Of a stretch of DNA of 64,000 nt, positions 1-16,639 are shown piece by piece (the first letter of the stretch is position 1; each line of letters begins with the position of its first letter). The translations under genes were made by a program, and so were the position numbers. This stretch comes from a virus. The stretch spans positions 34,340 through 98,339 of IMG/VR virus record IMGVR_UViG_3300027566_000006. One strand, 5' to 3'. Below the pieces are notes generated by a model, which was not told the DNA's origin, made no database searches, and saw only the letters and a program-made list of their open reading frames with translations.

Positions 1-394
1 ACCTTTACACAGATATCCATTTGTCATAGGCACATCTATATCAGTCAATGTTGCTATATAATCATCTGCATATTGTTGTTCTTTTATTTTTATAGTTTCT
101 CCTACTAGATTTTTATACCACCAATCAGGACTACTACACTTTACTATTTTTACTTTTCTCAATTATAAAACCTCCTTTTTATAATTTATAAATCCCAATA
201 TAACGGCATCTATCTTTGCACCAAAACCCAGGTTTTGTAATGATTTTAATATAAATCAATTTACTGCCCACCTCAGTAATTTGACTTATATTAAAACGTC
301 CTAAGTAAACCCTAACCGTATATGAGAGGTTTATTATATTATTTCTTTGGTGGGTGAGGTAGCCAACCTCAAAAGAATTAATACCTATATTGGC

Positions 395-739
395 CTAAAC
401 TGAAATGTTAACTCTAAGTTTATTTAATTTATCTTGTAATTCTTCGACTACCCTTTCTACATCTTCCTTACCTATCAAATTACAAGAAACGTTAATAGTA
501 AGTTCATCTTTGCTTTCTTCTTCATTATTTTCAAGTAAGTTACCTATATAATTTAAACTTTTAATCCCACCACCGTAATCTGCCACTATATTTAAATCGC
601 ATTCTTTAATAATTAATATAGGTTTTCTACCTAAATTTATATATTTTCCATAATAATCATTGTGACATACTTTATAATATACCATTTCCATTATTGTTTC
701 GGATTTAACATCAAAAAATTCAATACTATATACCTGCAT
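395..739 (-). CDS. hypothetical phage protein
   Basis: 114-aa ORF with purine-rich RBS, co-oriented with neighbours. Confidence 0.6.
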   Translation of the reverse strand: MQVYSIEFFDVKSETIMEMVYYKVCHNDYYGKYINLGRKPILIIKECDLNIVADYGGGIKSLNYIGNLLENNEEESKDELTINVSCNLIGKEDVERVVEELQDKLNKLRVNISV

Positions 740-791
740 AATACTAATTCCTTCTTTCTTTTCATAGTTTTATTTTATTTTTTTAATATAA

Positions 792-1610
792 TTAACCTTC
801 TAATTTATATCCCAATCTTGTTTTTACTGTTTGTTTTTTGTTGTAACATTCTAATATTGCCTTAGCATATTTTAAATCTCCTCTTGCACTCATATCACTA
901 TTACCCATTCTTTTAATCATCATTGGTTCATATTTACTCAAATTTTTAACAAATATTTTTTCTTCAATATCATCACCATATATTTTTACTAACAGATATG
1001 TACCCATAAGAATATGTCTATCTAAAGAAGATGAAACACCAAACCATGTTTCTTTAATTAATCTTAAAACTCTTTCTAATCCTTCTTCTCCTAAATCATT
1101 ATAAATAACTTCTATTGCTTTAAGAGCAATAATTTTGTTATTACCCTTACCTCCAGAAAACGGCATTTCTAAACCAACTTTTTTTGCAGTATTCGCCATA
1201 GCAACTACATCCTTATCTCCACCAATATATAATGCTTTTAAACTATCCATTAATGAAAAAGAACTGGTATTTTTTCTAATTCTTCCTACTAAAATAGCTT
1301 CTTCTTCTTTTGTAAGACCATAATGAACTATGCAAGGTACTAAAAATTCTTTCCCTTCGTGAATTTTCTTTAAAGCTGAAAATCTGTTTTGACCATCAAA
1401 TATATTATACTTGCCATCTCTATAACTAACACTGATAATTCCTAATTGGTGAGGATCGTAATTTTTTATAATTCTTTTAATTACCAAAGGTTTTAATAAT
1501 CTTTGATATTCTTCACCTGAAGTTAAACTTTTAGATGATATTAATTGTAATTGAGTATAAGTTCCTTGCTCCACTAAACTAACAACTTTTTTATTCAACA
1601 TATTAATCAT
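792..1610 (-). CDS. ParB/Srx-fold (DUF6551-like) protein
   Basis: YQR...IFDGQNR motif of the ParB/DndB/DUF262 superfamily. Confidence 0.65.
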   Translation of the reverse strand: MINMLNKKVVSLVEQGTYTQLQLISSKSLTSGEEYQRLLKPLVIKRIIKNYDPHQLGIISVSYRDGKYNIFDGQNRFSALKKIHEGKEFLVPCIVHYGLTKEEEAILVGRIRKNTSSFSLMDSLKALYIGGDKDVVAMANTAKKVGLEMPFSGGKGNNKIIALKAIEVIYNDLGEEGLERVLRLIKETWFGVSSSLDRHILMGTYLLVKIYGDDIEEKIFVKNLSKYEPMMIKRMGNSDMSARGDLKYAKAILECYNKKQTVKTRLGYKLEG

Positions 1611-1616
1611 TCTCCT

Positions 1617-2723
1617 TTAAATTAATTTATTTTTTAATTCGTTTATTGTCATTTCAATATTATTTATCGCAGTAAGTAATTTGTTTTTACATATTAATTC
1701 CATATCTTCATATGAATCGCCCCCTTCTACATATCTTTTTACTGAAAAAACAAATGTGTTTATTGCTGCTTCTATTTCCATAGTTATATCTTCATCGTCA
1801 TAATCATTAATACTTTTATTGAGATTTTTTACATCTGCTTCTAAAGCTTCCATATCAATCCCTTCAAACATTTTTTTCTTTGCCTTTGGCTTATCATGAC
1901 AATCCCTGCATTCTGCTCTACCTTTATAAAATTCTAATATTGATTTTGTTTGTCCACATTGACTACATACTTTCTCACTTCCTTCTTCTTTTCCATTATT
2001 TTTTTTCATCCCATCATTAACGATCCCTAAGTCTTTCCTTATTGTTTGTACTGCTTTCTGAACAGGTATTTCTTTATTAATTACCTGTTTTTTTATTTCT
2101 TCTGATATATCTTCTAATGAATCTAACTCTGCTAAATCACTAGCTCCTCTAGCAGATTCATTAAGAACAGTTTTAAGAAACTCTGCGTCCTTTTCATTAC
2201 CTTGTTTTTTTAAATTATCTATTTTTTTTACTGCTGATTTTGCTCTGTCATATGTCTTACCTGAACCGATACCAACTTTTTCGGCAAGAATTTCACGTAC
2301 TTCACCTTTATTTGCTTCCGGTACATTGTCCGTAAGCAAAATACCACCCTGACCTCCAGATTGTCTCTGTCTAGCTTTCTCTTTTTCAATTACCTCCCAA
2401 ACTTCCGCTTCTTTCATTTTTTGATATGTAGATTTATCTCTATATTGATTCTCAAGAAGTAATCTTTCAAGTTCTTCATTTTCATTACTAAATGTAATTT
2501 TCTCACATGGCAATTCTTTTTTACCTAAACTTACACAAGCATAATATCGCCTATGACCACTAATTATTATATTATCTTGATTAACAATTAGATTAGTAAT
2601 TATATTACTTTTCTTTATCTGTTCTGCTAACTCTTTTATATTTTCTTCACCGTATATATCCTTGTTCATTGGATGAGGTTTCAACTTACTTATATTTATA
2701 TTGTTCATTTTTACTCCTTTCAA
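1617..2723 (-). CDS. ParB N-terminal domain protein with C-terminal Cys pairs
   Basis: LKPHPMN...IISGHRRY ParB/Srx motif; CSQC/CRDC. Confidence 0.75.
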   Translation of the reverse strand: MKGVKMNNINISKLKPHPMNKDIYGEENIKELAEQIKKSNIITNLIVNQDNIIISGHRRYYACVSLGKKELPCEKITFSNENEELERLLLENQYRDKSTYQKMKEAEVWEVIEKEKARQRQSGGQGGILLTDNVPEANKGEVREILAEKVGIGSGKTYDRAKSAVKKIDNLKKQGNEKDAEFLKTVLNESARGASDLAELDSLEDISEEIKKQVINKEIPVQKAVQTIRKDLGIVNDGMKKNNGKEEGSEKVCSQCGQTKSILEFYKGRAECRDCHDKPKAKKKMFEGIDMEALEADVKNLNKSINDYDDEDITMEIEAAINTFVFSVKRYVEGGDSYEDMELICKNKLLTAINNIEMTINELKNKLI

Positions 2724-3712
2724 CTTGCAAAATCAATTAAACTATTATTAGCCAATTCAATCCGTTTTATTATTTTATCTTTATGGGTACTCCCTTGCCC
2801 ACAGTATTGAGCATATTCACATTGAGGGTTATAATCTACTATAAAACCATTTACCCATTTAATAAATTGCTCAAATGATATCGTTAAATCTTGACAAGTC
2901 TTTAAAGTCATAATGAATATTGGTATATTAATCTTTTTAATTTGTTTATGTTTCTCTTTAAAAGCCGAATCAAGTAATCTAAATAACTCCTGGCATTGCT
3001 CTAATTCTTCTTCTTTGTAATTGTTTCTATATTGTTCAGCAAACTCTAAAACATCGTCATTGTTAAATGTTTTATATTTATAATTTGTTAGAAGAATTAA
3101 TGATTGTAGTACACAAGTTTGATCTTCTCCTCTTCTTAATTGATGAGGTGTAAAATATGCTTTCGTTTTGAAAAAATCTAATTCTAATATTTCATCTATA
3201 AACTTAGCTAACCTATCACCTAATCTAATTCTTGTTTTTTGATCTTTAGTAAGTGCAGTTCCGTTATTAAGTCTAAAAAATATTTCTTCAATTTCATCAT
3301 CCGTACAATCTTCAAATATATACATAAGTAAATTTGCGGTTGTTAGTTCTTCTTTTACTTCTTCAGGCAATTGAGAAAATTTCATTTTACTTATATCATA
3401 TACTTGATCGTCAATTGTTGTCTCTGGCATACCTTTTATCAATGCCCATTCACCTTTAATATAGCTTTTTATAGTGGTTAACCTTTGCTTTCCATCTAGT
3501 ATTGAATACTTCCCTGCATTCTCTCCTTGCTCTTGTATCGCATATAGAGGGGGTACAGGGTAATCAGATAATAAACTATGTATTAATAGACTTTTTTGCT
3601 CATCTGACCATTGCCCTGCTTTTCGTTGTATTGGATGATTAAATAATACATTCTCCTTGTCTATATTTTGGATTATTTTTTTAATAGTCCAAGATATGTT
3701 TAGTTTCTTCAT
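2720..3712 (-). CDS. DUF262 (GmrS-like ParB-fold) protein
   Basis: IQR..QW, LIHSLL, ILDGKQRLTT and IFFRLNNG are DUF262 hallmarks. Confidence 0.8.
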   Translation of the reverse strand: MKKLNISWTIKKIIQNIDKENVLFNHPIQRKAGQWSDEQKSLLIHSLLSDYPVPPLYAIQEQGENAGKYSILDGKQRLTTIKSYIKGEWALIKGMPETTIDDQVYDISKMKFSQLPEEVKEELTTANLLMYIFEDCTDDEIEEIFFRLNNGTALTKDQKTRIRLGDRLAKFIDEILELDFFKTKAYFTPHQLRRGEDQTCVLQSLILLTNYKYKTFNNDDVLEFAEQYRNNYKEEELEQCQELFRLLDSAFKEKHKQIKKINIPIFIMTLKTCQDLTISFEQFIKWVNGFIVDYNPQCEYAQYCGQGSTHKDKIIKRIELANNSLIDFAS

Positions 3713-3744
3713 AATTATATTTCCTTTCTATAATTTTTGTTACA

Positions 3745-3944
3745 TTATTTTTTAATATATTCCACTATATCGCCTGGTTGACAATCTAAAACTTTGCAAA
3801 TCTTATCAATCACCTCAAGAGATACATATTCATTTGAACTTAATCTAGCCAAAGTGGAAGAAGAAATACTTATCATATCTTTAAGTTGTGTTTTTTAATA
3901 TCCCTATCAATCAATAGTTTTTGTAATTTTTTATAGCTAATCGT
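3745..3944 (-). pseudogene. inactivated Cro/C1-type (HTH_26-like) regulator
   Basis: Reconstructs to (M)ISYKKLQKLLIDRDIKKTQLKDMISISSSTLARLSSNEYVSLEVIDKICKVLDCQPGDIVEY only if start ACG is read as ATG and one A is added to the A6 run at 3891-3896; RBS GAGGTG intact. Confidence 0.8.
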
Positions 3945-3975
3945 AGGTATCACCTCTTTTAATTACATTTATATT

Positions 3976-4004
3976 ATTATACAAATATAATTTAGATTAG
4001 TCAA
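3976..4004 (-). promoter_or_regulatory. sigmaA promoter
   Basis: TTGACT-17-TATAAT. Confidence 0.75.
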
Positions 4005-4040
4005 ACTTATTTGATCCAAATGATTGTTTGACGTTGTTAT

Positions 4041-4352
4041 TTACCATCCACTAATATGCATTCCTTCTGTACTGTATATTCTTACATATTTATATTGTTG
4101 TTCTAAACAACTGTTATTGTTTATGTAATCAATTGCTTCATCCTCTGTTTTAAATTCCTCTGATACCTGTTGAAAGTCTCCACCATTATCTTCTTTAACT
4201 CTTACGTTATACCCCGTTGCGGTTCTGTTTGCTTTGCTAGTATAGCTCTCTATATGTTTTCCTTCTGGTAATCCATCAAAAGGCATACTTAAACACGGTT
4301 GAATTGCTTTATTTCTACGTTTATTAAACTTCATTGCTTTAGCATAACTCAT
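4041..4352 (-). CDS. hypothetical protein (cassette-like)
   Basis: ORF with RBS, bounded by palindromic sites at 4016 and 4379. Confidence 0.65.
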   Translation of the reverse strand: MSYAKAMKFNKRRNKAIQPCLSMPFDGLPEGKHIESYTSKANRTATGYNVRVKEDNGGDFQQVSEEFKTEDEAIDYINNNSCLEQQYKYVRIYSTEGMHISGW

Positions 4353-4395
4353 TTGTTTGCCCCTTCCCTGTTATTGATCCAAATACCTATTTGGT

Positions 4396-4590
4396 TTAAA
4401 TATATGCTTCCCACCATACCATATCATAATTAAATCCACCAACTATAGTTTCACATCTTTGACAATAAAACTTATTATCTTTAAAACTTAAATAATCTCT
4501 TTGTGTCCAATAAGCATCCCAACAATGTTCATTTTCCATAAGGTAATCTATTAATTCTTGTTTAGTTTGAAAATGTTCCCACATCATCAT
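4396..4590 (-). CDS. hypothetical protein
   Basis: ORF with AAGGAG RBS. Confidence 0.6.
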   Translation of the reverse strand: MMMWEHFQTKQELIDYLMENEHCWDAYWTQRDYLSFKDNKFYCQRCETIVGGFNYDMVWWEAYI

Positions 4591-4626
4591 TTATCACTCC
4601 TTTAATTTATTATATCTTATAATATA

Positions 4627-4655
4627 ATTATAAGTCTATATGTTGCTATTGTCAA
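4627..4655 (-). promoter_or_regulatory. sigmaA promoter
   Basis: perfect TTGACA-17-TATAAT. Confidence 0.85.
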
Positions 4656-4671
4656 CATGATTTTTATACTT

Positions 4672-5544
4672 TTATTTTAATATGTATTTAAAAATATGTG
4701 CTATAACATCAACAGTCCAGCCATTACCAAGCATTTTATATCTTTGTGTATTGCTTACCCCTTCAGTATAATTATCAGGTAATGTTTGAAGTCTTTCACA
4801 TTCTACAGGTGTTGCCATTCTTAAATCCTTTGCTAAAATTACACTTCTTTTTCCGTCTGCTCCTTTAAAATAATTAGCATCTAAACATAAAAATTTACTA
4901 TTATTAAGATCATCAATAATACAATCTTTATATCCTAATCCTTTTTCTTTTGCTCTTATGTTTATTTTAACTAATCTTTCTACTGCTATGTCGGTAAGAT
5001 AATATTTATTTTCAATTTCTAAATCATCTTGTAATATATCAACAACATATATATTTTTATTTTCTGGTTGAATAATATTAGGTATGTTAGTCCAATATAA
5101 TCTTTCCCTATTTAAAGCTGATACTAATGATGAATTGATTGATATTGGTTGCACTCCTAATTCTTTTGAAATTATATCTCTATCTATCTTCTTCATACTT
5201 GCTACATTTTCAAAAAGAAAATATTTTGGTTTGACACTTTTCAATGCTTCGATATATTTCCAAAACAGACCACTTTTACTTCCATTAATACCCTGCCTGT
5301 CTTTTTTAGCAATACTTAAATCTTGACAAGGGCTACCTCCTATAAGTAGATCAATATTATCAAATTGCTTCAAATTAATGTTGTTTATATCTCCTAATTG
5401 TATAGTGCCAGGATAGTTCTTTTGAGTAATCTGTATAGCATACTTATCAATTTCACTAGCATAATATGTATCCACTTTAATTCCTGCTCTTTCGAGAGCA
5501 ATCTGGCCGCAACTCATACCATCGAATAAACTTAAAACATTCAA
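4672..5544 (-). CDS. DNA (cytosine-5) methyltransferase, orphan
   Basis: Motifs I (SLFDG), IV (GGSPCQ), VI (FENV), IX/X (ERLQTLP, LGNGW). Confidence 0.92.
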   Translation of the reverse strand: MNVLSLFDGMSCGQIALERAGIKVDTYYASEIDKYAIQITQKNYPGTIQLGDINNINLKQFDNIDLLIGGSPCQDLSIAKKDRQGINGSKSGLFWKYIEALKSVKPKYFLFENVASMKKIDRDIISKELGVQPISINSSLVSALNRERLYWTNIPNIIQPENKNIYVVDILQDDLEIENKYYLTDIAVERLVKINIRAKEKGLGYKDCIIDDLNNSKFLCLDANYFKGADGKRSVILAKDLRMATPVECERLQTLPDNYTEGVSNTQRYKMLGNGWTVDVIAHIFKYILK

Positions 5545-5647
5545 TTAAATATTTTACCCTCCTTATATTTATATTATATAACTATTAAATATTTATAAAT
5601 ACTTTCAATAAGCCTCACATCCTTTAATATTTATCTTTAAACGCAAA

Positions 5648-5708
5648 AAAGCGGTATTGGTTTTATTAATCTAAATGTTATCAGACTAAATCCACCAATA
5701 CCGCTTTA
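5648..5708. terminator. intergenic stem-loop/terminator
   Basis: AAAGCGGTATTGGT...ACCAATACCGCTTT inverted repeat. Confidence 0.6.
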
Positions 5709-5754
5709 AGTCTAATATATTCAATTTTATTTTAAACTTATATTACATTCTTGT

Positions 5755-5946
5755 TTATACTTGCCTTTTATCGTATTCTGCTTTAGTAATTTCTACATAA
5801 GTCATTAACTCATCTTTCTCTAAGGTAAATTCATCTAAACCTATTTCATTGACCATGATGATTTTATTACCTTCTTCTTTGCCTCTATACACCCATCCGA
5901 ATTCACATGAATCTTTGTTGATATCCATAAAATATTTATAAGGCAT
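5755..5946 (-). CDS. hypothetical protein
   Basis: ORF with AAGGAG RBS. Confidence 0.6.
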   Translation of the reverse strand: MPYKYFMDINKDSCEFGWVYRGKEEGNKIIMVNEIGLDEFTLEKDELMTYVEITKAEYDKRQV

Positions 5947-6035
5947 GATTCAACACTCCTTTTTATTTATTCTAAAGGCATATTATTAAAATGTCAACCA
6001 TATTTATTTTTACCCTTTAATATCATATTTTTAAC

Positions 6036-6170
6036 TTAGTTACATTCTTTACAAAAATAACATTCTTCGTTATCATGAATTTCAATAGTATAATCTTTAT
6101 TTAAAATTAAATTATTTAAATCAATTTTTCTTCCACATTGGCTGCATTCAACATAAAAACTATCTAACAT
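6036..6170 (-). CDS. small Zn-ribbon protein (not in ORF track)
   Basis: MLDSFYVECSQCGRK...CYFCKECN with AGGAG RBS. Confidence 0.55.
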   Translation of the reverse strand: MLDSFYVECSQCGRKIDLNNLILNKDYTIEIHDNEECYFCKECN

Positions 6171-6256
6171 TTTAAATCTCCTTCAATCTCCTTTATACTC
6201 TATTATACTATGTTTTTCCAAACTCAAAATCGTTACAAAATGCCTGATTTATTTTG

Positions 6257-6589
6257 TTATGCTTTTAGTAATTCAATAATATAGTCTACTGCTCCGCTAA
6301 AATCATCATATCTGAAATATTTAGAACTACTCCAAAATTTATCCGAATATTGAAAAGCACTTGATTCATGTTTCACACTACTATAAACAACAATTTCATC
6401 ACTGTTTCTATTCTCACTAAAAGCAATTGTTTGAATTTTTGCTTCATCGTTATAATTGCAAACTCTATACCCTTGCTCTCTGCAATTTTCAAACATTTCA
6501 AAACTGGACTTAATATTTTGTGTGCGGGTATCCTCCATTAGCATATTTTTAATCTTTTCAGCATATTCAATCTTTCCTAATTCTAACAT
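6257..6589 (-). CDS. hypothetical protein
   Basis: ORF with RBS. Confidence 0.65.
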   Translation of the reverse strand: MLELGKIEYAEKIKNMLMEDTRTQNIKSSFEMFENCREQGYRVCNYNDEAKIQTIAFSENRNSDEIVVYSSVKHESSAFQYSDKFWSSSKYFRYDDFSGAVDYIIELLKA

Positions 6590-6627
6590 TTCAAATCCCT
6601 TCCTTTCATCCTTATAAAATATTAGTT

Positions 6628-6903
6628 TTATCCAATGTCCATTAATTCTGCCGTAATATTTAATGTTTTTCCGTTTATATCATACTGTGTAAACACTGTC
6701 CCGCCATCTGCAACATATCCTAATTCGTCTTCTCCTCTTAGAATTATGTTTAGGAATGTGTTATCCTCAACACCTTTTAAAAACTCTTTCAGTTCTCCAA
6801 CTGTTGTAATATTAACATTACATTCTTTGTATAATTCTTTCCGGTCTGCCTTTTTAGTTGTTTTTCTTTCCTCTTTAAATTCTTCTATTGAATATGGTAA
6901 CAT
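6628..6903 (-). CDS. hypothetical protein
   Basis: ORF with RBS. Confidence 0.65.
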   Translation of the reverse strand: MLPYSIEEFKEERKTTKKADRKELYKECNVNITTVGELKEFLKGVEDNTFLNIILRGEDELGYVADGGTVFTQYDINGKTLNITAELMDIG

Positions 6904-6958
6904 TTCAATACACTTCCTTTCAATTCGTTATAGAATCTGAATTTCAAACAAATATTTA

Positions 6959-7252
6959 TTATGCTGTCAATACTGGCATTTCTGTGATTTTAACTTTTAA
7001 GGTGTATTTATCAAAATCATGTGTCCCGCAAATTACTTTAAATAACTTTGTAGTTACCGTCACATCCTCTGAATACTTAACTGTTTTTTCTTCTAAATAT
7101 TTTACTTTTATTTCTTCTGCTTTTTTAGACCACTTGTTCATTAAAGTTTCTACAATGGCCTTTTTTAATTTTTGATTAGATGGAATTTTATTGTAGACTA
7201 AAATTGTTGAGTATTTAAATTCTAACTCCACATATTGAATGGTTCTACTCAT
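6959..7252 (-). CDS. hypothetical protein
   Basis: ORF with RBS. Confidence 0.65.
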   Translation of the reverse strand: MSRTIQYVELEFKYSTILVYNKIPSNQKLKKAIVETLMNKWSKKAEEIKVKYLEEKTVKYSEDVTVTTKLFKVICGTHDFDKYTLKVKITEMPVLTA

Positions 7253-7302
7253 TTTCTACCCTTCCTTTCTTGATAAAAAAGTTATTTGGTTTTGATGTAT
7301 TA

Positions 7303-7332
7303 ATTATACCATACTCACAACATGATATGCAA
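7303..7332 (-). promoter_or_regulatory. sigmaA promoter (extended -10)
   Basis: TTGCAT-18-TATAAT with TG. Confidence 0.6.
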
Positions 7333-7358
7333 GCACATTCTTTATTTTATTCTTTTGT

Positions 7359-7541
7359 TTACGCTACCCTCTTGAGGTAACTTTGTCTCGCTGTTATATG
7401 CCTATTCATTCTTGTTTTCTTTATCTCTAGAGCGTTTTTCATTGATAAGTAATTAACCATAAAGCAACTAAATACAATTAGTATCCATCCGGCTGCAAAG
7501 TATTTAATGACTAGGGAAGAGACTGTTATTATATCATTCAT
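7359..7541 (-). CDS. small membrane protein
   Basis: single hydrophobic helix, GGAGG RBS. Confidence 0.6.
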   Translation of the reverse strand: MNDIITVSSLVIKYFAAGWILIVFSCFMVNYLSMKNALEIKKTRMNRHITARQSYLKRVA

Positions 7542-7631
7542 TGTTATACCTCCTTTAGTTTATTTTTTATATTATAGTTATAAGGTTTTTGAATTAAGCA
7601 GAACCTTTTAAACTGCTGTTATTGTTTTAGT

Positions 7632-9200
7632 TTACATTGCCGAACTATTTATATTTAACCTGTTCATCTCTTTTAATATCCTTTTAAATGCTTCTTGATA
7701 ATCTGTATCGCATGCTTTAGTACCCCATGCCATTTTACCAGTTATGTGATTCTTAATTATTGTTATTGCCTGTTCAAAGGTTTTATACTCGGCTGATTCT
7801 TTAATCATTGGGAATTTATAACCTTGTTGTAATACTTCTTTTAATGCCTTACCTGTTATAATAGTTTCCCAATTTCCCATATTGATAAAACGCTGATCAT
7901 CATCAAAATGCGGTCTGTTATAGAAGTTAGAGATAGTATATATTTTATTCTCAATTATATTATGGTTTTCTATTGCTGTTACTTTACGGTTACATTTATA
8001 AATAATTGTCGGTTCTGTATCATTTCCAGTATATACTTCATCCTCCCAAAACAATTCTGATCCTGTTAATAGTTCGGAGATTTTATGATATTTCTTGCTG
8101 TTATTATCCATTTTTAAGTAAGTTACTGTATATAGAGTATTTTCTTCAACATCTTCTGGAGTGATATTTTTAACTTCTGCCAACATACTGTTATTGTAAT
8201 TTTCAAGTTCTTCTGCTTCTTTTCTTCTTCTCTGTTCTCCTTTTTTTATATTGCAGTTCTCATCAAAGTATAATGTATTGCTGTCAAAACTATGGCAATT
8301 AAAGCTTAACGGTGTTATACCTTCTTTTGTTTCTCCTGCTGATACCCACCAACCTGAAGAACTTTCGATTATTCTTTCTGCTAAATGTATTAAATCAAGT
8401 GATGAGCCTCTTCCATAATTACATGCTGCATCATAAGCATAATCATCTGAATAATACCCGTCTTTTACTCCTTTGAATATTTGACCTGATAAAATAGCTT
8501 TCCAAACATGAGCAATAGTCCATTTTTTTGGTGTTTTAATTGGTTTGATTTCAACGAATGGAGAAAAGGTATTAATTCCTTTTTGTGAACCTTTGTCTAT
8601 CTCTAAAGTTTCAATATTCAATGAATCGGTTATTATTGCGTTATGAAATGCTTTTACGGTTTCAATTTCGCCGATGTTCCACAATTCTGTTAATACAGAT
8701 TTATGGTCATCCCATACATTTTTACGGATTGAATAACGATTACATTCTTTACCAATTTTTAATGCATTGGTAAGGTCGATTAATACTGCACTATCAGCAT
8801 AAAAATGAATATATGCGTTAATATCTGCAAAGTAGCCGGAAACTCTGCTATTCAATTCTATATCGCTTGATTTAAAGATTTCTGTACTACCTACAGTATT
8901 GTAAGAGGGAAAATAAGATTGTTCTGGTTTGGTTGTTGTGGTCTGGTTGCTATTATCTGTTATTACTAATTCTTGATCCTGGTTAATTTCTCCGCTTAAT
9001 TCTTGAGCCAATTTTAAAGTTTTTTCTGATTGTTTGGCATACCACAATTCTTTTTTCCATGAGAATCTAAATCCTGCATCTTTTAGAATGTTTTTAATGG
9101 TGTTATTTGGTTTCTCATCTTTAGGCCAATATAATTCCACTCCGTTTAATTCCTCATTGATTGCCATTTTAATACTGTTATTGTCTGACATTGCCAACAC
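7632..9200 (-). CDS. large polyvalent-type early protein
   Basis: N-terminal GVELY..KP...LK.AGFR...WYAK motif of the kind seen in phage/plasmid polyvalent proteins; likely ATG start at 9191. Confidence 0.5.
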   Translation of the reverse strand: MLAMSDNNSIKMAINEELNGVELYWPKDEKPNNTIKNILKDAGFRFSWKKELWYAKQSEKTLKLAQELSGEINQDQELVITDNSNQTTTTKPEQSYFPSYNTVGSTEIFKSSDIELNSRVSGYFADINAYIHFYADSAVLIDLTNALKIGKECNRYSIRKNVWDDHKSVLTELWNIGEIETVKAFHNAIITDSLNIETLEIDKGSQKGINTFSPFVEIKPIKTPKKWTIAHVWKAILSGQIFKGVKDGYYSDDYAYDAACNYGRGSSLDLIHLAERIIESSSGWWVSAGETKEGITPLSFNCHSFDSNTLYFDENCNIKKGEQRRRKEAEELENYNNSMLAEVKNITPEDVEENTLYTVTYLKMDNNSKKYHKISELLTGSELFWEDEVYTGNDTEPTIIYKCNRKVTAIENHNIIENKIYTISNFYNRPHFDDDQRFINMGNWETIITGKALKEVLQQGYKFPMIKESAEYKTFEQAITIIKNHITGKMAWGTKACDTDYQEAFKRILKEMNRLNINSSAM

Positions 9201-9271
9201 TCCTTTTATTTTTATTAATTAAACTCTTATTTTGGGATACTACTTAGAGCATCCCAACTATAAGAATTCAC

Positions 9272-9676
9272 TTAATTATTTTCGTAAAATTCTATAGTCT
9301 CAGCTATTGCAACTTGATACTCTTCAATGCTGTTATACTGATTTACCGTTATATCACCTTCGCAGTATGTGTATATATTATATGCGTTGTTATCGGCTAA
9401 TACTGCTCTATATCCGTCAACAAAGAGACAACTGGTGTTATAATGTTTATTTACTATGGATTGGAATGTGTAACAATCTCCGCATATATGGCCTCCATAA
9501 TATAGAATAGAATTATCTTCTTTAATTCTGGAATGTAAGCATATATCAATTATTTTATTACCTGTTAAGGGATAGTCTGGAATGATTTCATATTTATTAA
9601 AATTGATTCCCTTATAGTTATTATCACTTAGAATAGTTTGAAATTGTTCTGCTGTTACCTTAATTATATTTTCCAT
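9272..9676 (-). CDS. hypothetical early protein
   Basis: ORF with AAGGAG RBS. Confidence 0.65.
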   Translation of the reverse strand: MENIIKVTAEQFQTILSDNNYKGINFNKYEIIPDYPLTGNKIIDICLHSRIKEDNSILYYGGHICGDCYTFQSIVNKHYNTSCLFVDGYRAVLADNNAYNIYTYCEGDITVNQYNSIEEYQVAIAETIEFYENN

Positions 9677-9714
9677 TTTATAACACTCCTTTTTTCTTTA
9701 AACTTTATATTATA

Positions 9715-9743
9715 ATTATAATGGTTTAGTTTCATGTTGTCAA
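9715..9743 (-). promoter_or_regulatory. sigmaA promoter
   Basis: perfect TTGACA-17-TATAAT. Confidence 0.85.
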
Positions 9744-9753
9744 CATTATTTTC

Positions 9754-9924
9754 TTAGCCTGTAGGCTCAAGATTATATTTTTCACACCATGAGCAAAATA
9801 CATCAATATTAGCTTTTACTCCTTGCTGCTGTCTTACTGCTTGATATTGGTTATAATCTGCGTACCAACATCCTGCTACCTTATAAGCCTTTACCCCGTT
9901 AATGTGTCTTGTTTTCTTTTCCAT
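9754..9924 (-). CDS. small hypothetical protein (56 aa, not in track)
   Basis: MEKKTRHINGVKAYKVAGCWY..., AAGGAG RBS. Confidence 0.5.
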   Translation of the reverse strand: MEKKTRHINGVKAYKVAGCWYADYNQYQAVRQQQGVKANIDVFCSWCEKYNLEPTG

Positions 9925-10042
9925 TATTTCCAACTCCTTTTTTGTTTTTTATTTTTATTTAAGCTTAACACTTACAGAGGTTAACACTGGCTGTTATTAT
10001 ATTTTGTTTGTGTTATGTGTTAACCTTTAAAATGTTAATTCG

Positions 10043-10222
10043 TTATTTGGTTACATACCATGCCACAAATTTATTTTCTGTTCCATCTTGACTACTCCAA
10101 GGCGTATAATGTGCCTTATGATTTTTTCTAATATAGGTATTTAGATTTTCATTATTGCAAAATATTTTTGCTTGTTCTTCAGTATCAAAAAACTTAAATG
10201 TTGACTTATATCTGATGCTCAT
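10043..10222 (-). CDS. small hypothetical protein (59 aa, not in track)
   Basis: MSIRYKSTFKFFDTEEQAK..., AAGGAG upstream. Confidence 0.5.
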   Translation of the reverse strand: MSIRYKSTFKFFDTEEQAKIFCNNENLNTYIRKNHKAHYTPWSSQDGTENKFVAWYVTK

Positions 10223-10258
10223 AATATAAACATACTCCTTTTTATTTTTTGTTCTGTA

Positions 10259-10489
10259 CTAATTTGTTTTAATGGCAGGAATATTATATAAAACAATTTT
10301 CCCACTATCATTATATATATTATTGCAAACGCTCATTTTAAAATATTTTTTACCTTTTTTGATTCCTTCTATTACAAAGGATAATCCTTTTTCCTCCGCT
10401 TCTTTTAGTTCTAATTCCTCGAAAGATGTATTGTTGCTCCATCCATCTTTTATGAATTTATTTGTTATTTGTTCCACTGTTTTAAACAT
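10259..10489 (-). CDS. hypothetical protein (start revised to MFKTV)
   Basis: GGAGG RBS precedes ATG at 10489. Confidence 0.55.
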   Translation of the reverse strand: MFKTVEQITNKFIKDGWSNNTSFEELELKEAEEKGLSFVIEGIKKGKKYFKMSVCNNIYNDSGKIVLYNIPAIKTN

Positions 10490-10545
10490 TATTGTTATAC
10501 CTCCTTCCATTTTTTCACTTTGAATCAAATTTGCTATTGGTTTTG

Positions 10546-10824
10546 TTATTTGCATATTTCGCATATGCAATGTTGTGATCCACCTGTAAATATTCCTTTG
10601 TATACATCTGATTCAAGAATAAGACTCTTATAATTTCTTCTTGAATCTCCTGTATACATTACTTTAATTATGCCAGAAACATAATTCCGTAAAGTATACC
10701 CAGTAGCAAGGATTTTATTATCATCCATGCATCTAATTTGATATTTAAAGAAGTTTACCTTCTCACATACCAAATTTTGATTACCTAAGTATTTTTCGAG
10801 TTCTCCTGCTTTTAAAGTTTTCAT
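10546..10824 (-). CDS. hypothetical protein (start revised to MKTLK)
   Basis: GGAG RBS precedes the internal ATG. Confidence 0.5.
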   Translation of the reverse strand: MKTLKAGELEKYLGNQNLVCEKVNFFKYQIRCMDDNKILATGYTLRNYVSGIIKVMYTGDSRRNYKSLILESDVYKGIFTGGSQHCICEICK

Positions 10825-11125
10825 TCCTATCCACTCCATTCTGTTATTATTTTTATTTCCTTTTAATACCCTCAATTATGCCCAAATTGGGCATACTGGA
10901 AGGTACTGCTGTTATACTAAATAAATTTTAATTCCTAAATATATTTGTGAATCAATTCTAATTTTCTCAATTTCCCGTTCCTTGTATTCTTTTGGTATTT
11001 TGTGCCGTAAAATGTAATTGCAGACCATCAACATGCAATTCTATATTTTCTTTACCATCAAGAGTTTTTAATAAGTCATCAAATTTCATTCTGCTCCACT
11101 CCTTTTTTAATTCTGTTATTACCTA

Positions 11126-11155
11126 ATTCTAACAGATTTACTTTCATGTTGTCAA
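11126..11155 (-). promoter_or_regulatory. sigmaA promoter
   Basis: TTGACA-18-TAGAAT; shares TTGACAACATGAAA with the 9743 promoter. Confidence 0.65.
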
Positions 11156-11240
11156 TAGTATTTTATGCTTACAATTATATCTTTATTCTGTTATTTAGTG
11201 ATAAAATCAATCTTTCATCACAAGTATAGTTTAACTGCTG

Positions 11241-11534
11241 TTATACCGCTTGAGGGTAAAGTTTGCAGTATTCATCAAACAATTTCTCTGTTTCCCTTTT
11301 TGCATCTTTTAGCAGTTTAAACCTTCCAATAATATCTTGAGATTCTTTTTCCGTATTTTCTACTATGCCATAATAAAAAGGTCTTTTGATTGAATCGTGA
11401 CTGTATTCTTTTTCCATTTCTTGATATACAACTACTCTAATGGTTTCTAATGTATTGCAGGGATCACGGGCTTCAAAAGTATAACGGGGAGAATCGTCTA
11501 ACCAGTCATAACCTTTTGTCCATTTTTTAGTCAT
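11241..11534 (-). CDS. hypothetical protein
   Basis: ORF with AAGGAG RBS. Confidence 0.65.
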   Translation of the reverse strand: MTKKWTKGYDWLDDSPRYTFEARDPCNTLETIRVVVYQEMEKEYSHDSIKRPFYYGIVENTEKESQDIIGRFKLLKDAKRETEKLFDEYCKLYPQAV

Positions 11535-11569
11535 ATGATTTTCACTCCTTAATTATTTTATTAATCTGG

Positions 11570-11926
11570 TTATTGCTGATATGCACAAATAACCTTGTCA
11601 CCTAAATCAATGGCAAATCCTTTTTTACTCGGTAAAGGTTTGATCATATCAATAAATTTAGACTTTGTGTTATACTCAATTCCTGCTGCATCGATAAAAT
11701 TATCATTGAAATAATCCCAGGTTTTATAATTCTTATTGATAGTCTGCTCTAAGTAACATACTAGAGCTTTGTTGGCTGGTAAAGTGTATAGCGCATGGTC
11801 TGTTATAGTTCCCTGCTCGTCAATAGACTTGATAATTGATTTTTGGTTGTTCATTATGTTTCCTTCTTTCTTAATAATTATTTTTAGTTTGTTATACTGC
11901 GTATGAATATCTTCTACCTTCTTCAT
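11570..11926 (-). CDS. hypothetical protein
   Basis: ORF; true start probably MNNQK at 11854. Confidence 0.55.
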   Translation of the reverse strand: MKKVEDIHTQYNKLKIIIKKEGNIMNNQKSIIKSIDEQGTITDHALYTLPANKALVCYLEQTINKNYKTWDYFNDNFIDAAGIEYNTKSKFIDMIKPLPSKKGFAIDLGDKVICAYQQ

Positions 11927-12149
11927 CTATTAGATAAATATATTTGACTGAAGTTATTTTGTATTCTGCTCCTTTTGTTTTATGCCATTCAAATGTTCGG
12001 TCAACATGAATTATATATTCATTGTTATAAATTAGCATGTATTCAAATGTATCATACTCAGTTTTTTCTATTTCTAATAATTTCTCAAGGTCTTTTATTT
12101 TGATTTTTCCTTTTATTGATTCGGGCATAGATTTTTTATTGATATACAT
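11892..12149 (-). CDS. hypothetical protein
   Basis: ORF with GGAGG RBS. Confidence 0.6.
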   Translation of the reverse strand: MYINKKSMPESIKGKIKIKDLEKLLEIEKTEYDTFEYMLIYNNEYIIHVDRTFEWHKTKGAEYKITSVKYIYLIDEEGRRYSYAV

Positions 12150-12274
12150 TATGTTTTTACCTCCTTCCCTTATTACTATTCTGTTATTATTAATTCCTCT
12201 ATAGAATATTAAAATCTGTTATATCTTATTTATAGTTTGATTTTAACACTCTAACAAAAATTAATTGCTTGCTG

Positions 12275-12601
12275 TTATTGTGCGCTTGATCCGCTAACAT
12301 GAGCATAATTAGTTAAAAACCATTCTGTATATTTTTCAGCTTTAAACCATTTCGCTAGTTTATAATAACTTAATTCTCCTATTCCTGGTATTGGTTGCGG
12401 TTTTATTAATGCTTTTTTAGGTATCCAGCAAGTATATTTTGATAATTCCATGCTTTTAGATTCCATGTTATAACCTTGTAATTGTATAGCCTTATCTGTT
12501 ATTGCCGTTATACGTCCATGAAACATTCTACTAAATATTGCCGTCTCTGCTATTGCTCCACCTAAAGAAATGCTGATTTCTTGATATTCTCTAAAATCCA
12601 T
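12275..12601 (-). CDS. hypothetical protein
   Basis: ORF with GAGGA RBS. Confidence 0.6.
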   Translation of the reverse strand: MDFREYQEISISLGGAIAETAIFSRMFHGRITAITDKAIQLQGYNMESKSMELSKYTCWIPKKALIKPQPIPGIGELSYYKLAKWFKAEKYTEWFLTNYAHVSGSSAQ

Positions 12602-12606
12602 TATTG

Positions 12607-12861
12607 TTATTCCTCCTCTATAAATTCAACTATGTGCAAACCTTTATTCCAATTGTATTTACATATTTGACCACTAAAAATGTTATTGTCTGCATCAAGA
12701 AATAAGGTAATGTTATTAACATCTTTTTTCATTCCTTCCCGATATGGTTTGATATATGTTCTACAGATTAAGTGGGGAATGGTTCCTGCTACATTGTATA
12801 GGTCTGCAAACTGTCCACCTGGAGTAAATACGCTAGTTCTGATTTCTTCAATATTTACCAT
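12607..12861 (-). CDS. hypothetical protein
   Basis: ORF with AGGAGG RBS. Confidence 0.65.
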   Translation of the reverse strand: MVNIEEIRTSVFTPGGQFADLYNVAGTIPHLICRTYIKPYREGMKKDVNNITLFLDADNNIFSGQICKYNWNKGLHIVEFIEEE

Positions 12862-12958
12862 ATTTATCCTCCTTTATATTTTTGTTTTACTACTAATAAG
12901 CCTTGACAAGTGGTGCTAATTGTTATTTGTTATTAGTACCACTTAATAAGAATTATTG

Positions 12959-13195
12959 TTATTGATTTTTAGATGATATCCGACTGATATAGTTTTGAAA
13001 ATCCAGTATTGATATTTTAGTCATTGGCTGAGATGATATTTTATTTTTAGCTTTATATACCTTTAAATTTGTTTCTCTGGTGTCAAACTTGTATTCGCCT
13101 ATATGATACATTCCCCACCTATCAATGGTAGCTCCTGCTTGCTCTAGGATGGTATTAAGATCATTAATATGTTTTAACCTTTGGATTTTTGTCAA
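12959..13195 (-). CDS. hypothetical protein
   Basis: TTG start with GGGAG RBS. Confidence 0.55.
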   Translation of the reverse strand: MTKIQRLKHINDLNTILEQAGATIDRWGMYHIGEYKFDTRETNLKVYKAKNKISSQPMTKISILDFQNYISRISSKNQ

Positions 13196-13228
13196 TGTTA
13201 TCGACTCCCTTTATTTATTTTATGCCTC

Positions 13229-13258
13229 ATTATATCATACTGGTAATATGATTGTAAA
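13229..13258 (-). promoter_or_regulatory. sigmaA promoter (extended -10)
   Basis: TTTACA-18-TATAAT with TG. Confidence 0.65.
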
Positions 13259-13312
13259 GAGTGGATATTTATTTTTATTAAATGATATACTGCTCGTGAT
13301 AGGATAAGTCTG

Positions 13313-13495
13313 TTATATCATTTCTATTTTAATATCATTATGTTTTTCTTTATCTTTCATTACATCAACTATAAAGTGCATATTTGGAGTAATAGTTTCA
13401 TATTTTGTAGCATCTTCTATGTCGTCTACCATTTTGGGGAACACTTCTCGAACAATAAATTTTAAGTATTGATTTTCACATTTAATCACATACAT
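13313..13495 (-). CDS. hypothetical protein
   Basis: AGGAGG RBS. Confidence 0.6.
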   Translation of the reverse strand: MYVIKCENQYLKFIVREVFPKMVDDIEDATKYETITPNMHFIVDVMKDKEKHNDIKIEMI

Positions 13496-13545
13496 ATAAT
13501 AACCTCCTTTTCACTTGATTCCAAACGGTTATTTTATGCTGAGTG

Positions 13546-13842
13546 CTAATTTATTTTTACAAATTTTAATATACTTGATTCAACCCAAGTTTTCAATTCT
13601 TTATCTGTTATAGTCTTTTCCCAAATAAAACTTTTAAAATCTGTACTATAACAATGTAATTGACAACGGCCTATGATCCATAGATTATCTTGTAATACTT
13701 CATATATTCCATTATAGCAATCAAATTGATTTTGAATAATTACATGATTTATTTTTATATTGTCTTTTTCAGTTACCAAAATATATTTTACATTATTTTT
13801 ACCACAAAAGTCTGGTAGTATATCATTGTTATTGTTATTCAT
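13546..13842 (-). CDS. hypothetical protein
   Basis: GGAGG RBS. Confidence 0.6.
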   Translation of the reverse strand: MNNNNNDILPDFCGKNNVKYILVTEKDNIKINHVIIQNQFDCYNGIYEVLQDNLWIIGRCQLHCYSTDFKSFIWEKTITDKELKTWVESSILKFVKIN

Positions 13843-13873
13843 TTTTATTCCTCCAATTCATTTTTTTAATCTG

Positions 13874-14218
13874 TTATAGATTTACCGCTATAGTTCCGCT
13901 TTTAATCCAGCAATCACAATTAGCAATGACTGTTATTATTGTTATGGTATTATTTGTAATATTGCAAACTATCGAAAAATTGTTTGGTTTATCTTGTATA
14001 AAAATATCTCTGTTGCTACCAGCATAGGCTGTTATTGTTTTTTCTCCTAGACTGAGTATTGATCCTGTTACTTGGTAAAGATCAATTTGTCGTTGCTGTA
14101 GTCTGAGTTCTGCATGGTTTGTTAAGCGGATAGAATAGGTATTATTATTAATAGTGAATGTATTAATGGAAGTTCCCGCCTTTCTTTTGTGGTTGTGGTT
14201 GGTTGTGGTGTTATACAT
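13874..14218 (-). CDS. DUF4258/BECR-like small protein
   Basis: IRLTNHAELRLQQRQI and C-terminal ITIITVI pattern resemble RelE-like BECR RNase folds. Confidence 0.4.
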   Translation of the reverse strand: MYNTTTNHNHKRKAGTSINTFTINNNTYSIRLTNHAELRLQQRQIDLYQVTGSILSLGEKTITAYAGSNRDIFIQDKPNNFSIVCNITNNTITIITVIANCDCWIKSGTIAVNL

Positions 14219-14522
14219 TTATTATACTCCTTTCTTTTGTTATTTGTAATTGTATTCGGTTTATAATCTTTGACAATGGGTATTATATTTATTTTGATTC
14301 TATAATACCTATTAATAAGGATTATATTGTGATAGTGTTATGCAGGTCTTACAATTAGTTCATTATTCTTAATTTCTACTACTTGGAGCTTGCAAGTAGT
14401 GTTTTTTAATTTAAAGGTATCATTCACTTTATAATCCTTTTTAACCTTGCCTATTAGATTTAGACAACCGGGTGATCTAAAATATACTTTTTTCATTTTG
14501 TTGTGCTCCTTCCATTAGTCTG

Positions 14523-14729
14523 TTATATCATTCCAAGATATTCGCAGTATTCGCCACCATGATTATTATATAGTTTAGTTTGTTTCATTAGTGTATAGTC
14601 TTCTAATATGCTACATTGTACTAATAGTGTTAATTCTTTTAATGTTGCGTGTACTTGTATTCTCTTTGTGGCCATTTTAGATTTTAGGTTTCTGGCTTGG
14701 TTTGTTATTGTCTTTTGGTCTTTTGTCAT
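14523..14729 (-). CDS. hypothetical protein
   Basis: ORF with RBS. Confidence 0.5.
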   Translation of the reverse strand: MTKDQKTITNQARNLKSKMATKRIQVHATLKELTLLVQCSILEDYTLMKQTKLYNNHGGEYCEYLGMI

Positions 14730-14844
14730 TTTGTTATTTCCTTCTTTCTTTTTATTATTGTTCTGTTATTGTGTTTTAAATATTCTCTATAGAGCTAATT
14801 TTATTTTATACTTCTAATTAGCTCTAACAAAATATTATTTGGTG

Positions 14845-15219
14845 TTATGCTGCCGTTATGGTTTGTTCTGTTATTGTTTGTTCAGCTAATTGAATTAATT
14901 CTTTTAGGCTAAATCTATTACTTTCTTTTAGTTCGGTTTCTTTGTGTTCTTTTGTTATGCTCCATATGTTGCCATCATTGTTCTTAGTGGCTGAATAGGT
15001 TTCCGTAAAATATTTACCAATTCCATTACAATACTTAAAATAATAAAACCTAGTGTATTGTTTTTCCGTTTCCGTCTCGTTTGTTAATTTGATTAATGAA
15101 GGGTATTCATGATCATGCGATGGATTATAGATATAATTTGCTAGATCAATTTTAAAATTATTTGCGGTTTGGATTTGAGATAGTTTTTTAAGGTTTTCCT
15201 TTTTGAGATTTCTTGCCAT
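14845..15219 (-). CDS. hypothetical protein
   Basis: ORF with RBS. Confidence 0.65.
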   Translation of the reverse strand: MARNLKKENLKKLSQIQTANNFKIDLANYIYNPSHDHEYPSLIKLTNETETEKQYTRFYYFKYCNGIGKYFTETYSATKNNDGNIWSITKEHKETELKESNRFSLKELIQLAEQTITEQTITAA

Positions 15220-15317
15220 TTTAATTCCTTCTTCCTTTTATTTGTTATTTTGTGTATCTGTTATATCCTCTATAAAGCATATACTTAACTGTTATAGGTA
15301 TATGCTTTAACAAGATA

Positions 15318-15680
15318 TTAAGATATGAAATGTAATTCCCCATTAACTTCTAAACTTATTGCATCTTGATTAGCCATTGTTAGTAATTGTTCGCCTATTT
15401 CAATAGCTGACTCAATTGCAATTTCTAGGTTATTTGTGTAGCTGAATACTACGGTAATTTTTTCTTTTATCAATTCCCCTGATGCTGATTTCCAGTAACC
15501 TAGTGCGGATGTAGAAGTAGCTCCCCCATTAACCTGGGAGAACGTAGAAGCTGTTAAGTCAACCATTTTATTAATTAGTTCCTGTGATAATTCAATATTG
15601 TTTTTGTCTTTTGTCGGAACGTATAAAGAGATTTTATGGGATAATTTGAATAGGTTTTTCAAGGTTTTTTTGTTTTCCAT
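15318..15680 (-). CDS. conserved small phage protein (GGAT...G.W...E motif, DUF3574-like)
   Basis: NGGATST.ALGYWKS..GELIKEK; start revised to the ATG behind GAAGGA. Confidence 0.5.
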   Translation of the reverse strand: MENKKTLKNLFKLSHKISLYVPTKDKNNIELSQELINKMVDLTASTFSQVNGGATSTSALGYWKSASGELIKEKITVVFSYTNNLEIAIESAIEIGEQLLTMANQDAISLEVNGELHFIS

Positions 15681-15750
15681 TAGTGTTATTCCTTCTTTCA
15701 TTTTTTGTTATTTTAGCATCAAATCTCGGTTTTATACTGAGTGATATTAA

Positions 15751-15921
15751 TTATTCTTCGTTTATTACTACTCGTTCTATTATATTACTAATTACATTTT
15801 GCAATCCAAAAAGTTCTTTTAATGTTAGGGTTCCTTCCTCTTCAACTAATTTTTCTAATATGCTTTGATTTCTTAATATTTCGCTAGCTCTTTCTAGTGT
15901 TATATGTTGTTTATTTGCCAT
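15751..15921 (-). CDS. hypothetical protein, first ORF of early operon
   Basis: AAAGGAG RBS before ATG (MANKQ). Confidence 0.6.
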   Translation of the reverse strand: MANKQHITLERASEILRNQSILEKLVEEEGTLTLKELFGLQNVISNIIERVVINEE

Positions 15922-15944
15922 TTTGATATCTCCTTTCATTTTAT

Positions 15945-16265
15945 TTTAGACTTCTAAAAACCTTCAAGCAAGATAATGTTTGTTGGTTGTTATCTTGATT
16001 CAAGATTCTCTATTCTCGGTTACTGCACTCTGTTCATATCTTTCAATTTATCTCTACTATACTTGTGCCGGGTCAATGCCTCCAGCTATACGGCTTAGTA
16101 GGTTAGAGTGCTATATTAGTATTTATATCCTCCACGATTCAATAAATACTTTTTGTATTAGAGCTTGCATGAGGTAAAGGTAACTCGAATCTGAATCGGC
16201 TGGCCTTTAGGTCTAAGCGGTCTAGGCTGTCGGCCTGTTGTTCGTGTGTCTGTATCTCTTATCTG
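15945..16265 (-). ncRNA. putative structured leader RNA
   Basis: GC-richer, ORF-free on the sense strand, at least 6 complementary segment pairs, directly after a consensus promoter. Confidence 0.55.
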
Positions 16266-16270
16266 AATTC

Positions 16271-16299
16271 AGTATATCAGGTTGGGAATATGAAGTCAA
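16271..16299 (-). promoter_or_regulatory. sigmaA promoter of early operon
   Basis: TTGACT-17-TATACT with TG extension and AT-rich UP element. Confidence 0.8.
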
Positions 16300-16555
16300 T
16301 AGTTTTTTTGAATATTTTTATATTTTTATTTTGATGATTGATTGAGAATAGGTTGGTATTAGATTGATAATATAATGGTGGTTGCAGCATGATTTGATTG
16401 TATAGGTGGTTATATGGCTCAAGGTTGGACGGTAGTATGTTTTATGATGTTTTGTATTCAGTTGGTTGGTTTATGGTGGTTGTTGGGGAGTATGAGAGGA
16501 GGTAATTTAATAGAAGATAAAAAATTGAACATTTACACGGTATAATAAGAGAATT

Positions 16556-16622
16556 AAAAAAGTTGTCCGTCAAAACCTATATAGAAATAAATCTATTATA
16601 TAGTATTCGACAGACAACTTTT
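16556..16622. repeat. long imperfect inverted repeat
   Basis: AAAGTTGTCcGTCaAA..CTATATA / TATATAG..TTcGACaGACAACTTT. Confidence 0.7.
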
Positions 16623-16639
16623 ATTTTATATTCATAATA

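Follow-up and report, generated by a model that had tools for sequence, protein, structure and literature searches.

The core of a dif-type Xer site consists of two inverted arms of ~11 bp around a central region of 6–8 bp (PMC5357621). In difH, the inner ends of the arms (AGTTATGAAAA and AAAAGTTTGA) are runs of A and of T (PMC5357621), as they are in the element described here, a dyad with a 6-bp centre that recurs at gene junctions in the early region of an uncultivated phage and is referred to below as the junction site. The phage is represented by the 98,339-bp IMG/VR viral record IMGVR_UViG_3300027566_000006 (the contig), and the DNA analysed (the window) is the 64,000-nucleotide stretch made up of contig bases 34340–98339; site coordinates are those of the window unless marked as contig. 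The sites may be crossover joints for gene modules, each addressed to its own position, and we judge the chances of this function, which for this phage is argued by homology with the SPbeta group of Bacillus phages, to be about even.

Several dif-type Xer sites (dif, Bsdif, archaeal dif/XerA, difH/XerH and difSL/XerS) likewise combine inverted arms of ~11 bp with a 6-bp centre. The likeness to dif, difH and difSL covers the AAAA/TTTT inner arms and the 11-6-11 geometry, and this phage codes for Xer-family recombinases. Unlike dif, the phage sites number ~40 per genome and not one, have different centres and near-perfectly symmetric arms, and are located at gene junctions. The pdif (dif) modules of Acinetobacter plasmids resemble the phage arrangement in that multiple Xer-type sites flank small accessory modules, in varied contexts in related replicons (PMC6449649). 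Two-sided flanking with varied contexts was found here in modules of Spbetavirus genomes and, in this phage, for one paralogous gene at two loci. The pdif modules are regarded as dependent on the host XerC and XerD and as having asymmetric C and D arms of alternating orientation, whereas the phage sites have symmetric arms, position-specific centres and a fixed joint order.

The PeSL cassettes of T4-type phages, which consist of a strong early promoter and a terminator hairpin, are also repeated intergenic elements among small non-essential early genes; open reading frames (ORFs) are inserted, deleted or replaced there between relatives, and homology recombination between any of the copies gives rise to mini-circles (PMC2839356). 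The phage sites differ in being 16-bp dyads with unique centres and with neither a promoter nor a stable hairpin. In cluster A mycobacteriophages, dozens of short sites called stoperators, which are bound by the immunity repressor (gp71 in L5), lie in short intergenic spaces across the operons of the temperate phage. Stoperators are asymmetric 13-bp sites oriented with transcription, unlike the phage sites, which are mirror-symmetric in core and flanks. Heterospecific lox/FRT cassette exchange, an engineering method, uses sites with identical arms and different spacers, which restricts recombination to cognate sites and thereby maintains the order; in contrast to this artificial system, a natural counterpart in phages is at the stage of a proposal.

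Within the SPbeta group itself, a repeated intergenic element has been described. SPBRE, a 15-bp motif, is the operator of SPbeta MrpR, a protein with the tyrosine-recombinase fold, and all ten ChAP-seq peaks of MrpR in SPbeta lie at SPBRE (PMC10516654). The SPBRE core, AATATGTATA, is present in ~10–14 copies at SPbeta promoters, and the phage studied here has an MrpR homologue. The junction sites were considered as SPBRE copies and rejected: their sequence is different, and there is no excess of SPBRE-like words at them. Judged by sequence, they are a second, more numerous element beside SPBRE.

The contig has a G+C content of ~28% and is estimated to be 56% complete. Its bases 1–54,860 (the window up to 20,521) form the early region, whose ~115 genes are mostly small and all lie on the minus strand. 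The remainder is on the plus strand and includes two integrase-family genes as well as those for the portal and the terminase. With its counterpart in the SPbeta group, the terminase shares 48% identity, and the contig also codes for the MrpR homologue (Pfam MrpR_N_CB, 44 bits), a YopQ-like protein beside it and a YopP-like recombinase. Given the terminase identity and these three proteins, the window is assigned to a distant, very AT-rich SPbeta-like phage.

An earlier sequence-only reading of the window had listed 14 copies of the site, and all 14 were found where it had placed them. Its consensus, YMAAA-N6-TTTKR, describes half of them exactly (7/14); six of the 14 carry one mismatch, and the copy at 6931 carries two. 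The sites in the early part of the window, which include one beyond that list, are as follows.

222–237: junction site CAAAA-N6-TTTTG, exact; a longer repeated element follows
4016–4031: junction site, exact; 9 nt past a stop codon, with a sigma-A-type promoter at 4004–3976 (minus strand) just downstream of it
4379–4394: junction site CCAAA-N6-TTTGG, exact; 1 nt past a stop codon and 26 nt ahead of an ATG
6018–6033: degenerate junction site with 1 mismatch
6236–6251: junction site with 1 mismatch to the strict pattern (see below), matched by the loose pattern
6615–6630: junction site TAAAA-N6-TTTTA (the SPbeta form), exact; overlaps the upstream stop codon
6931–6946: weak junction site with 2 mismatches, between minus-strand ORFs 6628–6903 and 6959–7252
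7274–7289: junction site, exact; in a 5' leader, with a TATAAT box on one side and a Shine-Dalgarno sequence on the other
10525–10540: possible site with 1 mismatch, doubtful because it lies inside the overlap of two called ORFs
11202–11217: junction site, loose pattern; upstream of a promoter at 11155–11126
13521–13536: junction site, exact
15719–15734: junction site, exact
18249–18264: additional site beyond the earlier list, loose pattern

Comparison with shuffled intergenic DNA, the check proposed along with that list, showed a clear enrichment in the early region. Across the whole 98-kb contig, early intergenic DNA contains 13 copies of the strict pattern ([CT][AC]AAA-N6-TTT[GT][AG]), compared to 1.05 ± 1.05 (maximum 5) in 500 dinucleotide shuffles. 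The enrichment is limited to the 6-bp spacer, since spacers of 2–5 and 7–11 bp give 0–3 copies only. The 34 kb upstream of the window played no part in defining the pattern and so serve as an independent test; here the strict pattern is found 6 times vs 0.88, and the loose pattern, a more relaxed symmetric version, 29 times vs 5.5 ± 2.4. Late intergenic DNA is at chance level (strict 1 vs 0.58, loose 4 vs 4.5), and the two late-region copies of the earlier list, at 40578 and 56828, are therefore also at chance level.

A site is present in ~43 of the 92 early intergenic regions. Its position between the stop codon of one gene and the ribosome-binding site of the next, as described in the sequence-only reading, was largely confirmed: in 36 of 41 cases the site lies −3 to +10 nt past the stop codon upstream of it, and of the 36 sites for which a downstream start could be assigned, 20 lie 21–28 nt ahead of that ATG. 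The early genes share one orientation, each with its own ribosome-binding site, and several consensus sigma-A-type promoters are scattered inside the array. Most sites have no promoter of their own; a few precede one (4016, 11202) or sit in the leader behind one (7274). The four consecutive ORFs said to be bracketed between 6018 and 7289 are indeed all on the minus strand and bracketed by five sites, two of which (6018 and 6931) are degenerate. The 6-bp centres of the sites all differ from each other within this phage (43/43), as they do within SPbeta (34/34), and in this phage their G+C fraction is 0.39 vs 0.25 in the surrounding intergenic DNA.

Other repeats accompany the junction sites. 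A repeat of ~39 bp is found in inverted copies at contig 7119–7157 and 27271–27309 (90% identical), each adjoining a junction site, and a related copy at window ~190–237 abuts site 222. The heptamer ATAACAG shows an extreme strand polarity: the 7.9 kb of window 7391–15295 have 31 copies on the minus (coding) strand and none on the plus strand, the entire early region 39 and 0, and the heptamer often stands directly after a junction site or ahead of a Shine-Dalgarno sequence. A search for enriched intergenic 5-mers returned Shine-Dalgarno words only, and a Gibbs motif search of 80-nt stretches preceding the genes failed to converge, owing to coding DNA mixed in.

The inverted arms and the 6-bp centre had been likened to the core sites of tyrosine recombinases, and the symmetry of the sites bears out this architecture. 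Oriented logos drawn from 32 SPbeta sites and from 43 of this phage have mirror symmetry that reaches ±6 nt beyond the 5-bp arms at a fixed 6-bp spacer, which amounts to a dyad over ~28 bp (11-6-11). The SPbeta logo is approximately TCTrrA-TAAAA-N6-TTTTA-TyyAGA; that of this phage has Y at −5 and R at +5, A at −1 and T at +1, and arms YMAAW and WTTKR. Within single sites, the left and right flanks do not covary (pairing of 2.72 observed vs 2.87 expected from flanks of different sites), and the RNA fold of the sites is weak, with a predicted median of −1.1 kcal/mol. Taken together, the mirror symmetry, the missing covariation and the marginal folds indicate that the sites probably act as DNA, read by a protein with two-fold symmetry. 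A hairpin reading was rejected on the same lack of covariation and marginal predicted folds. A promoter reading, with a −10-like nATGAT past the site or TTGA as a −35 element, was also rejected, as the spacings are wrong for one and the true consensus promoters are located elsewhere.

This class of sites is also present in other phages. In SPbeta, where the form of the site is TAAAA-N6-TTTTA, the same regular expression is enriched at spacer 6 alone, with 46 copies in the whole genome vs 11–18 at other spacers (8 vs 0.66 in early intergenic DNA and 9 vs 1.4 in intergenic DNA outside it). Copy numbers in the early regions are 16 for phi3T, 14 for Goe11 and 11 for Goe14, vs 0–5 at other spacers, and the Clostridioides (C. 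difficile) phage phiCD211 has 26 exact copies vs 2–12. Bacillus phage SPP1 shows no enrichment in the same scan, and this single control makes a host factor or a general feature of Bacillus phages unlikely. The site class is common to SPbeta-like phages, including this one with its diverged arms (CCAAA/TTTGG, TCAAA/TTTGA).

The behaviour of the sites between related genomes was followed in nine members of Spbetavirus (SPbeta, phi3T, Goe11, Goe13, Goe14, SPR, BUCT083, SPbetaL1 and SPbetaL3). Their centres make up one ordered series across the nine genomes, in which each site retains its own 6-bp centre. Homology of the 150-nt flanks was scored with a threshold of 30 (the 99th percentile of the null is 12.5). 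Of 413 pairs of sites with identical centres, 93 have homology in both flanks, 151 in one flank and 169 in neither. At 14 of the 17 positions present in at least four genomes there is more than one type of flank, and at 10 of the 17 at least three of the four possible left/right combinations (gametes) occur. On the non-homologous side, identity ends 0–2 nt from the 16-mer in 88 of 106 distinct pairs of left flanks and 0–4 nt from it in 65 of 94 pairs of right flanks. The site with centre GATCAA is an illustration: one identical 16-mer joins six unrelated left flanks and four right flanks. The breakpoint comparison among relatives, proposed in the sequence-only reading and performed here in the SPbeta group, thus finds module exchange at homologous sites with junctions abutting the 16-mer, and in these genome alignments the sites are seen as crossover joints for gene modules. 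The reassorted modules meet at identical centres, so partners share the central region, which is equally expected from descent or plain homology. In the phage studied here, its only paralogous gene pair (contig 12530–12724 and 26758–26943) gives one internal hint of exchange: sites bracket both copies, and DNA similarity fades at the sites.

Spbetavirus genomes contain a second repeated intergenic element, AGAATAAAAATAAAATTAG followed by TGGAGG, which is a conserved leader with a Shine-Dalgarno sequence downstream of several junction sites. Some module junctions fall just past this AGAATAAAAATAAAATTAG-TGGAGG element instead of at the site. No description of the junction site was found in the literature searched; the original 1999 SPbeta genome paper lay outside that search.

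Two tyrosine recombinases had been recognised in the window, and both assignments are supported.

26790–27680, plus strand: Xer-type tyrosine recombinase of 296 aa, with full-length match to XerA (E 4e-30), XerC-like and XerD proteins; PHROG integrase
59596–60642, plus strand: YopP-like tyrosine recombinase of 348 aa (Pfam Phage_integrase, 87 bits)

The first aligns with XerA, XerC-like and XerD proteins over its full length (E 4e-30 to 3e-20), and with IntI4 over 46 residues only. In the second, the R...HxxR...H...Y motif is intact in alignments to XerA, XerH and an XerC-like chain, and there is a weak match to SPbeta yopP. The latter belongs to the core genes of SPbeta-like phages, and lysogens transcribe it (PMC10516654); neither PMC8612738 nor PMC10516654 assigns it a function. 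YopP-like homologues occur in large Firmicutes phages, and a phyletic-pattern search for the site-reading protein was uninformative at these distances. The YopP-like recombinase at 59596 is a candidate reader of the sites.

As crossover joints, the sites would work as follows. Dyads with inverted arms of ~5 bp (extended ~11 bp) around a centre unique to each position punctuate the junctions of early minus-strand genes. In the SPbeta group, related genomes hold each site, centre included, at a constant place in the series, and the modules on its left and right are exchanged separately, up to the edge of the 16-mer. With their diverged arms (YMAAW/WTTKR), the sites of this phage would do the same job as those of SPbeta. 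Exchange would be catalysed by a phage tyrosine recombinase, presumably the conserved YopP-like protein, and not by short-homology recombination. Strand exchange by a tyrosine recombinase needs matching centres, so only cognate positions would recombine, and co-infecting phages or resident prophages would swap modules with their positional counterparts while gene order is kept. In its full form, the proposal is that SPbeta-like phages carry a natural recombinase-mediated cassette exchange with ~40 heterospecific sites, identical arms, unique 6-bp overlaps and a YopP-like reader; we put it forward tentatively and consider it rather unlikely to be correct in all these parts.

If the sites were addressed joints, the mosaicism of phage genomes would not stem solely from rare illegitimate events filtered by selection, and a built-in mechanism would shuffle accessory genes while gene order stays. 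The conserved yopP would gain a function, and a natural set of orthogonal recombination sites would be suggested. SPbeta is genetically tractable, which makes the idea directly testable. The window extends the site class to diverged arms, as is expected if site and reader co-evolve.

A number of results weigh against addressed crossover joints. Function in this phage rests on homology because no close relatives of its early region were found, either by megablast against phages or by related-locus searches with the 522-aa, 368-aa and YopQ-like proteins as queries; relatives found via the terminase span late genes only and have no site signal in them. The arms are more degenerate in this phage than TAAAA/TTTTA, and LC76P1, Sundance and KKP_3916 possess a YopP-like gene and give no clear site signal in a simple scan. 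When BLAST endpoints were compared between SPbeta, phi3T, Goe11 and Goe14, a breakpoint was present in 24 of 41 intergenic regions with a site vs 36 of 86 without, a modest association (odds ratio 1.96, p = 0.09). About half of these breakpoints lie inside genes, and the sites are therefore not the sole joints. The shared blocks are 87–99% identical, so that descent alone, without selection, can explain the conserved centres, and plain homology over 16 bp would yield the same pattern of exchange without a recombinase. A control with orphan shared 14-mers was too noisy for a clean comparison with other conserved 16-mers.

The alternative named in the sequence-only reading is an operator array, here considered as one of the stoperator kind, in which a dimeric phage DNA-binding protein would block or tune the long early operons and the crossovers would be a by-product of a conserved 16-bp patch. 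We regard such an array as a possibility to be taken seriously, though not a probable one. It would account for dyad symmetry without covariation and for enrichment in the early but not the late intergenic DNA of this phage. The sites occupy every intergenic context (stop–site–Shine-Dalgarno; stop–site–promoter at 4016 and 11202; promoter–site–Shine-Dalgarno at 7274 and at SPbeta yosX), which fits a roadblock. The stoperators of cluster A mycobacteriophages are an analogous arrangement. MrpR on SPBRE is a precedent, in the same phage group, for a repressor with a recombinase fold at a repeated element (PMC10516654); however, the ten MrpR peaks in SPbeta all lie at that element, a different sequence with the core AATATGTATA, and the binder of the junction sites is hypothetical. 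Furthermore, sites are not significantly sparser in the lysogeny module than in the rest (3/11 vs 37/81, p = 0.34), and an operator alone leaves unexplained why unrelated modules abut the 16-mer within 0–2 nt on either side at most positions. Exchange driven by a recombinase and an operator with incidental, homology-driven exchange both fit the present data.

An element of the mRNA upstream of the Shine-Dalgarno sequence, i.e. the site of a translational regulator or of endoribonuclease processing of polycistronic early RNA, appears improbable. In this phage, SPbeta and phiCD211, most short intergenic regions do have the end of the site 6–15 nt ahead of the Shine-Dalgarno sequence, and T(A/C)ATGA(T/G) recurs downstream of the sites in this phage, but such tight spacing follows for the most part from the ~45-nt length of the intergenic regions. 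The flanks are mirror-symmetric without compensatory changes, the predicted hairpins are marginal, and some sites precede the promoter of the next gene or follow a terminator, which puts them outside the leader of that gene.

The sequence-only reading had called the array integron-like. A true integron-like system with free circular single-gene cassettes, an IntI-type integrase and a common promoter is brought to mind by the small ORFs of one orientation with their own ribosome-binding sites, many of them bracketed by sites, and by the presence of tyrosine recombinases, but it is very hard to sustain: the sites are simple, weakly folding dyads of 16–28 bp and not imperfect attC palindromes of 57–141 bp that recombine in a folded, single-stranded form, the protein at 26790 is Xer-like over its full length and not IntI-like while that at 59596 is YopP/Xer-like, several sigma-A-type promoters lie inside the array and neither attI nor Pc was found, and the fixed order of centres among relatives is the opposite of free cassette shuffling. 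The related claim that single cassettes are inserted or shuffled among the sites of one genome did not hold either: since all centres differ, canonical recombination between different sites of a genome is not expected, and what is seen fits exchange at cognate positions between related genomes. The idea of an anti-defence array is left unsupported because none of ten bracketed ORFs has an informative PHROG match (8/10 match no family, 2/10 only families of unknown function).

The lysogeny module mentioned above is located at contig 15,500–20,000, outside the window, and includes the following genes.

Contig 16318–17280: MrpR homologue (Pfam MrpR_N_CB/MrpR_C_cat)
Contig 17282–18649: YopQ-like protein with a DndB/ParB fold
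Contig 19225–19962: AgrB-family protein

The AgrB-family gene suggests agr-type signalling at the position held by arbitrium in SPbeta. At the start of the window, three successive proteins with ParB-like folds (DUF6551, ParB_N and GmrSD_N) are encoded on the minus strand at 792–3712 and are followed by a C5 cytosine methylase at 4672–5544.

Two further plus-strand genes lie between the early region and the Xer-type recombinase. The first (21284–22204) codes for an actin-like segregation protein (Pfam ALP_N), which, together with the recombinase at 26790, suggests that the prophage may be maintained as a plasmid. The second (24059–26629) codes for an 856-aa protein of phrog_5156 without a Pfam match. 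Its weak similarity to the single-subunit RNA polymerase YonO of SPbeta (E 4e-5) and to SPP1 gene 32 indicates that it is probably a YonO-type polymerase. At the extreme end of the contig there is a perfect 73-bp tandem direct repeat (window 63854–64000, contig 98193–98339), which may be an assembly repeat or a terminal repeat.

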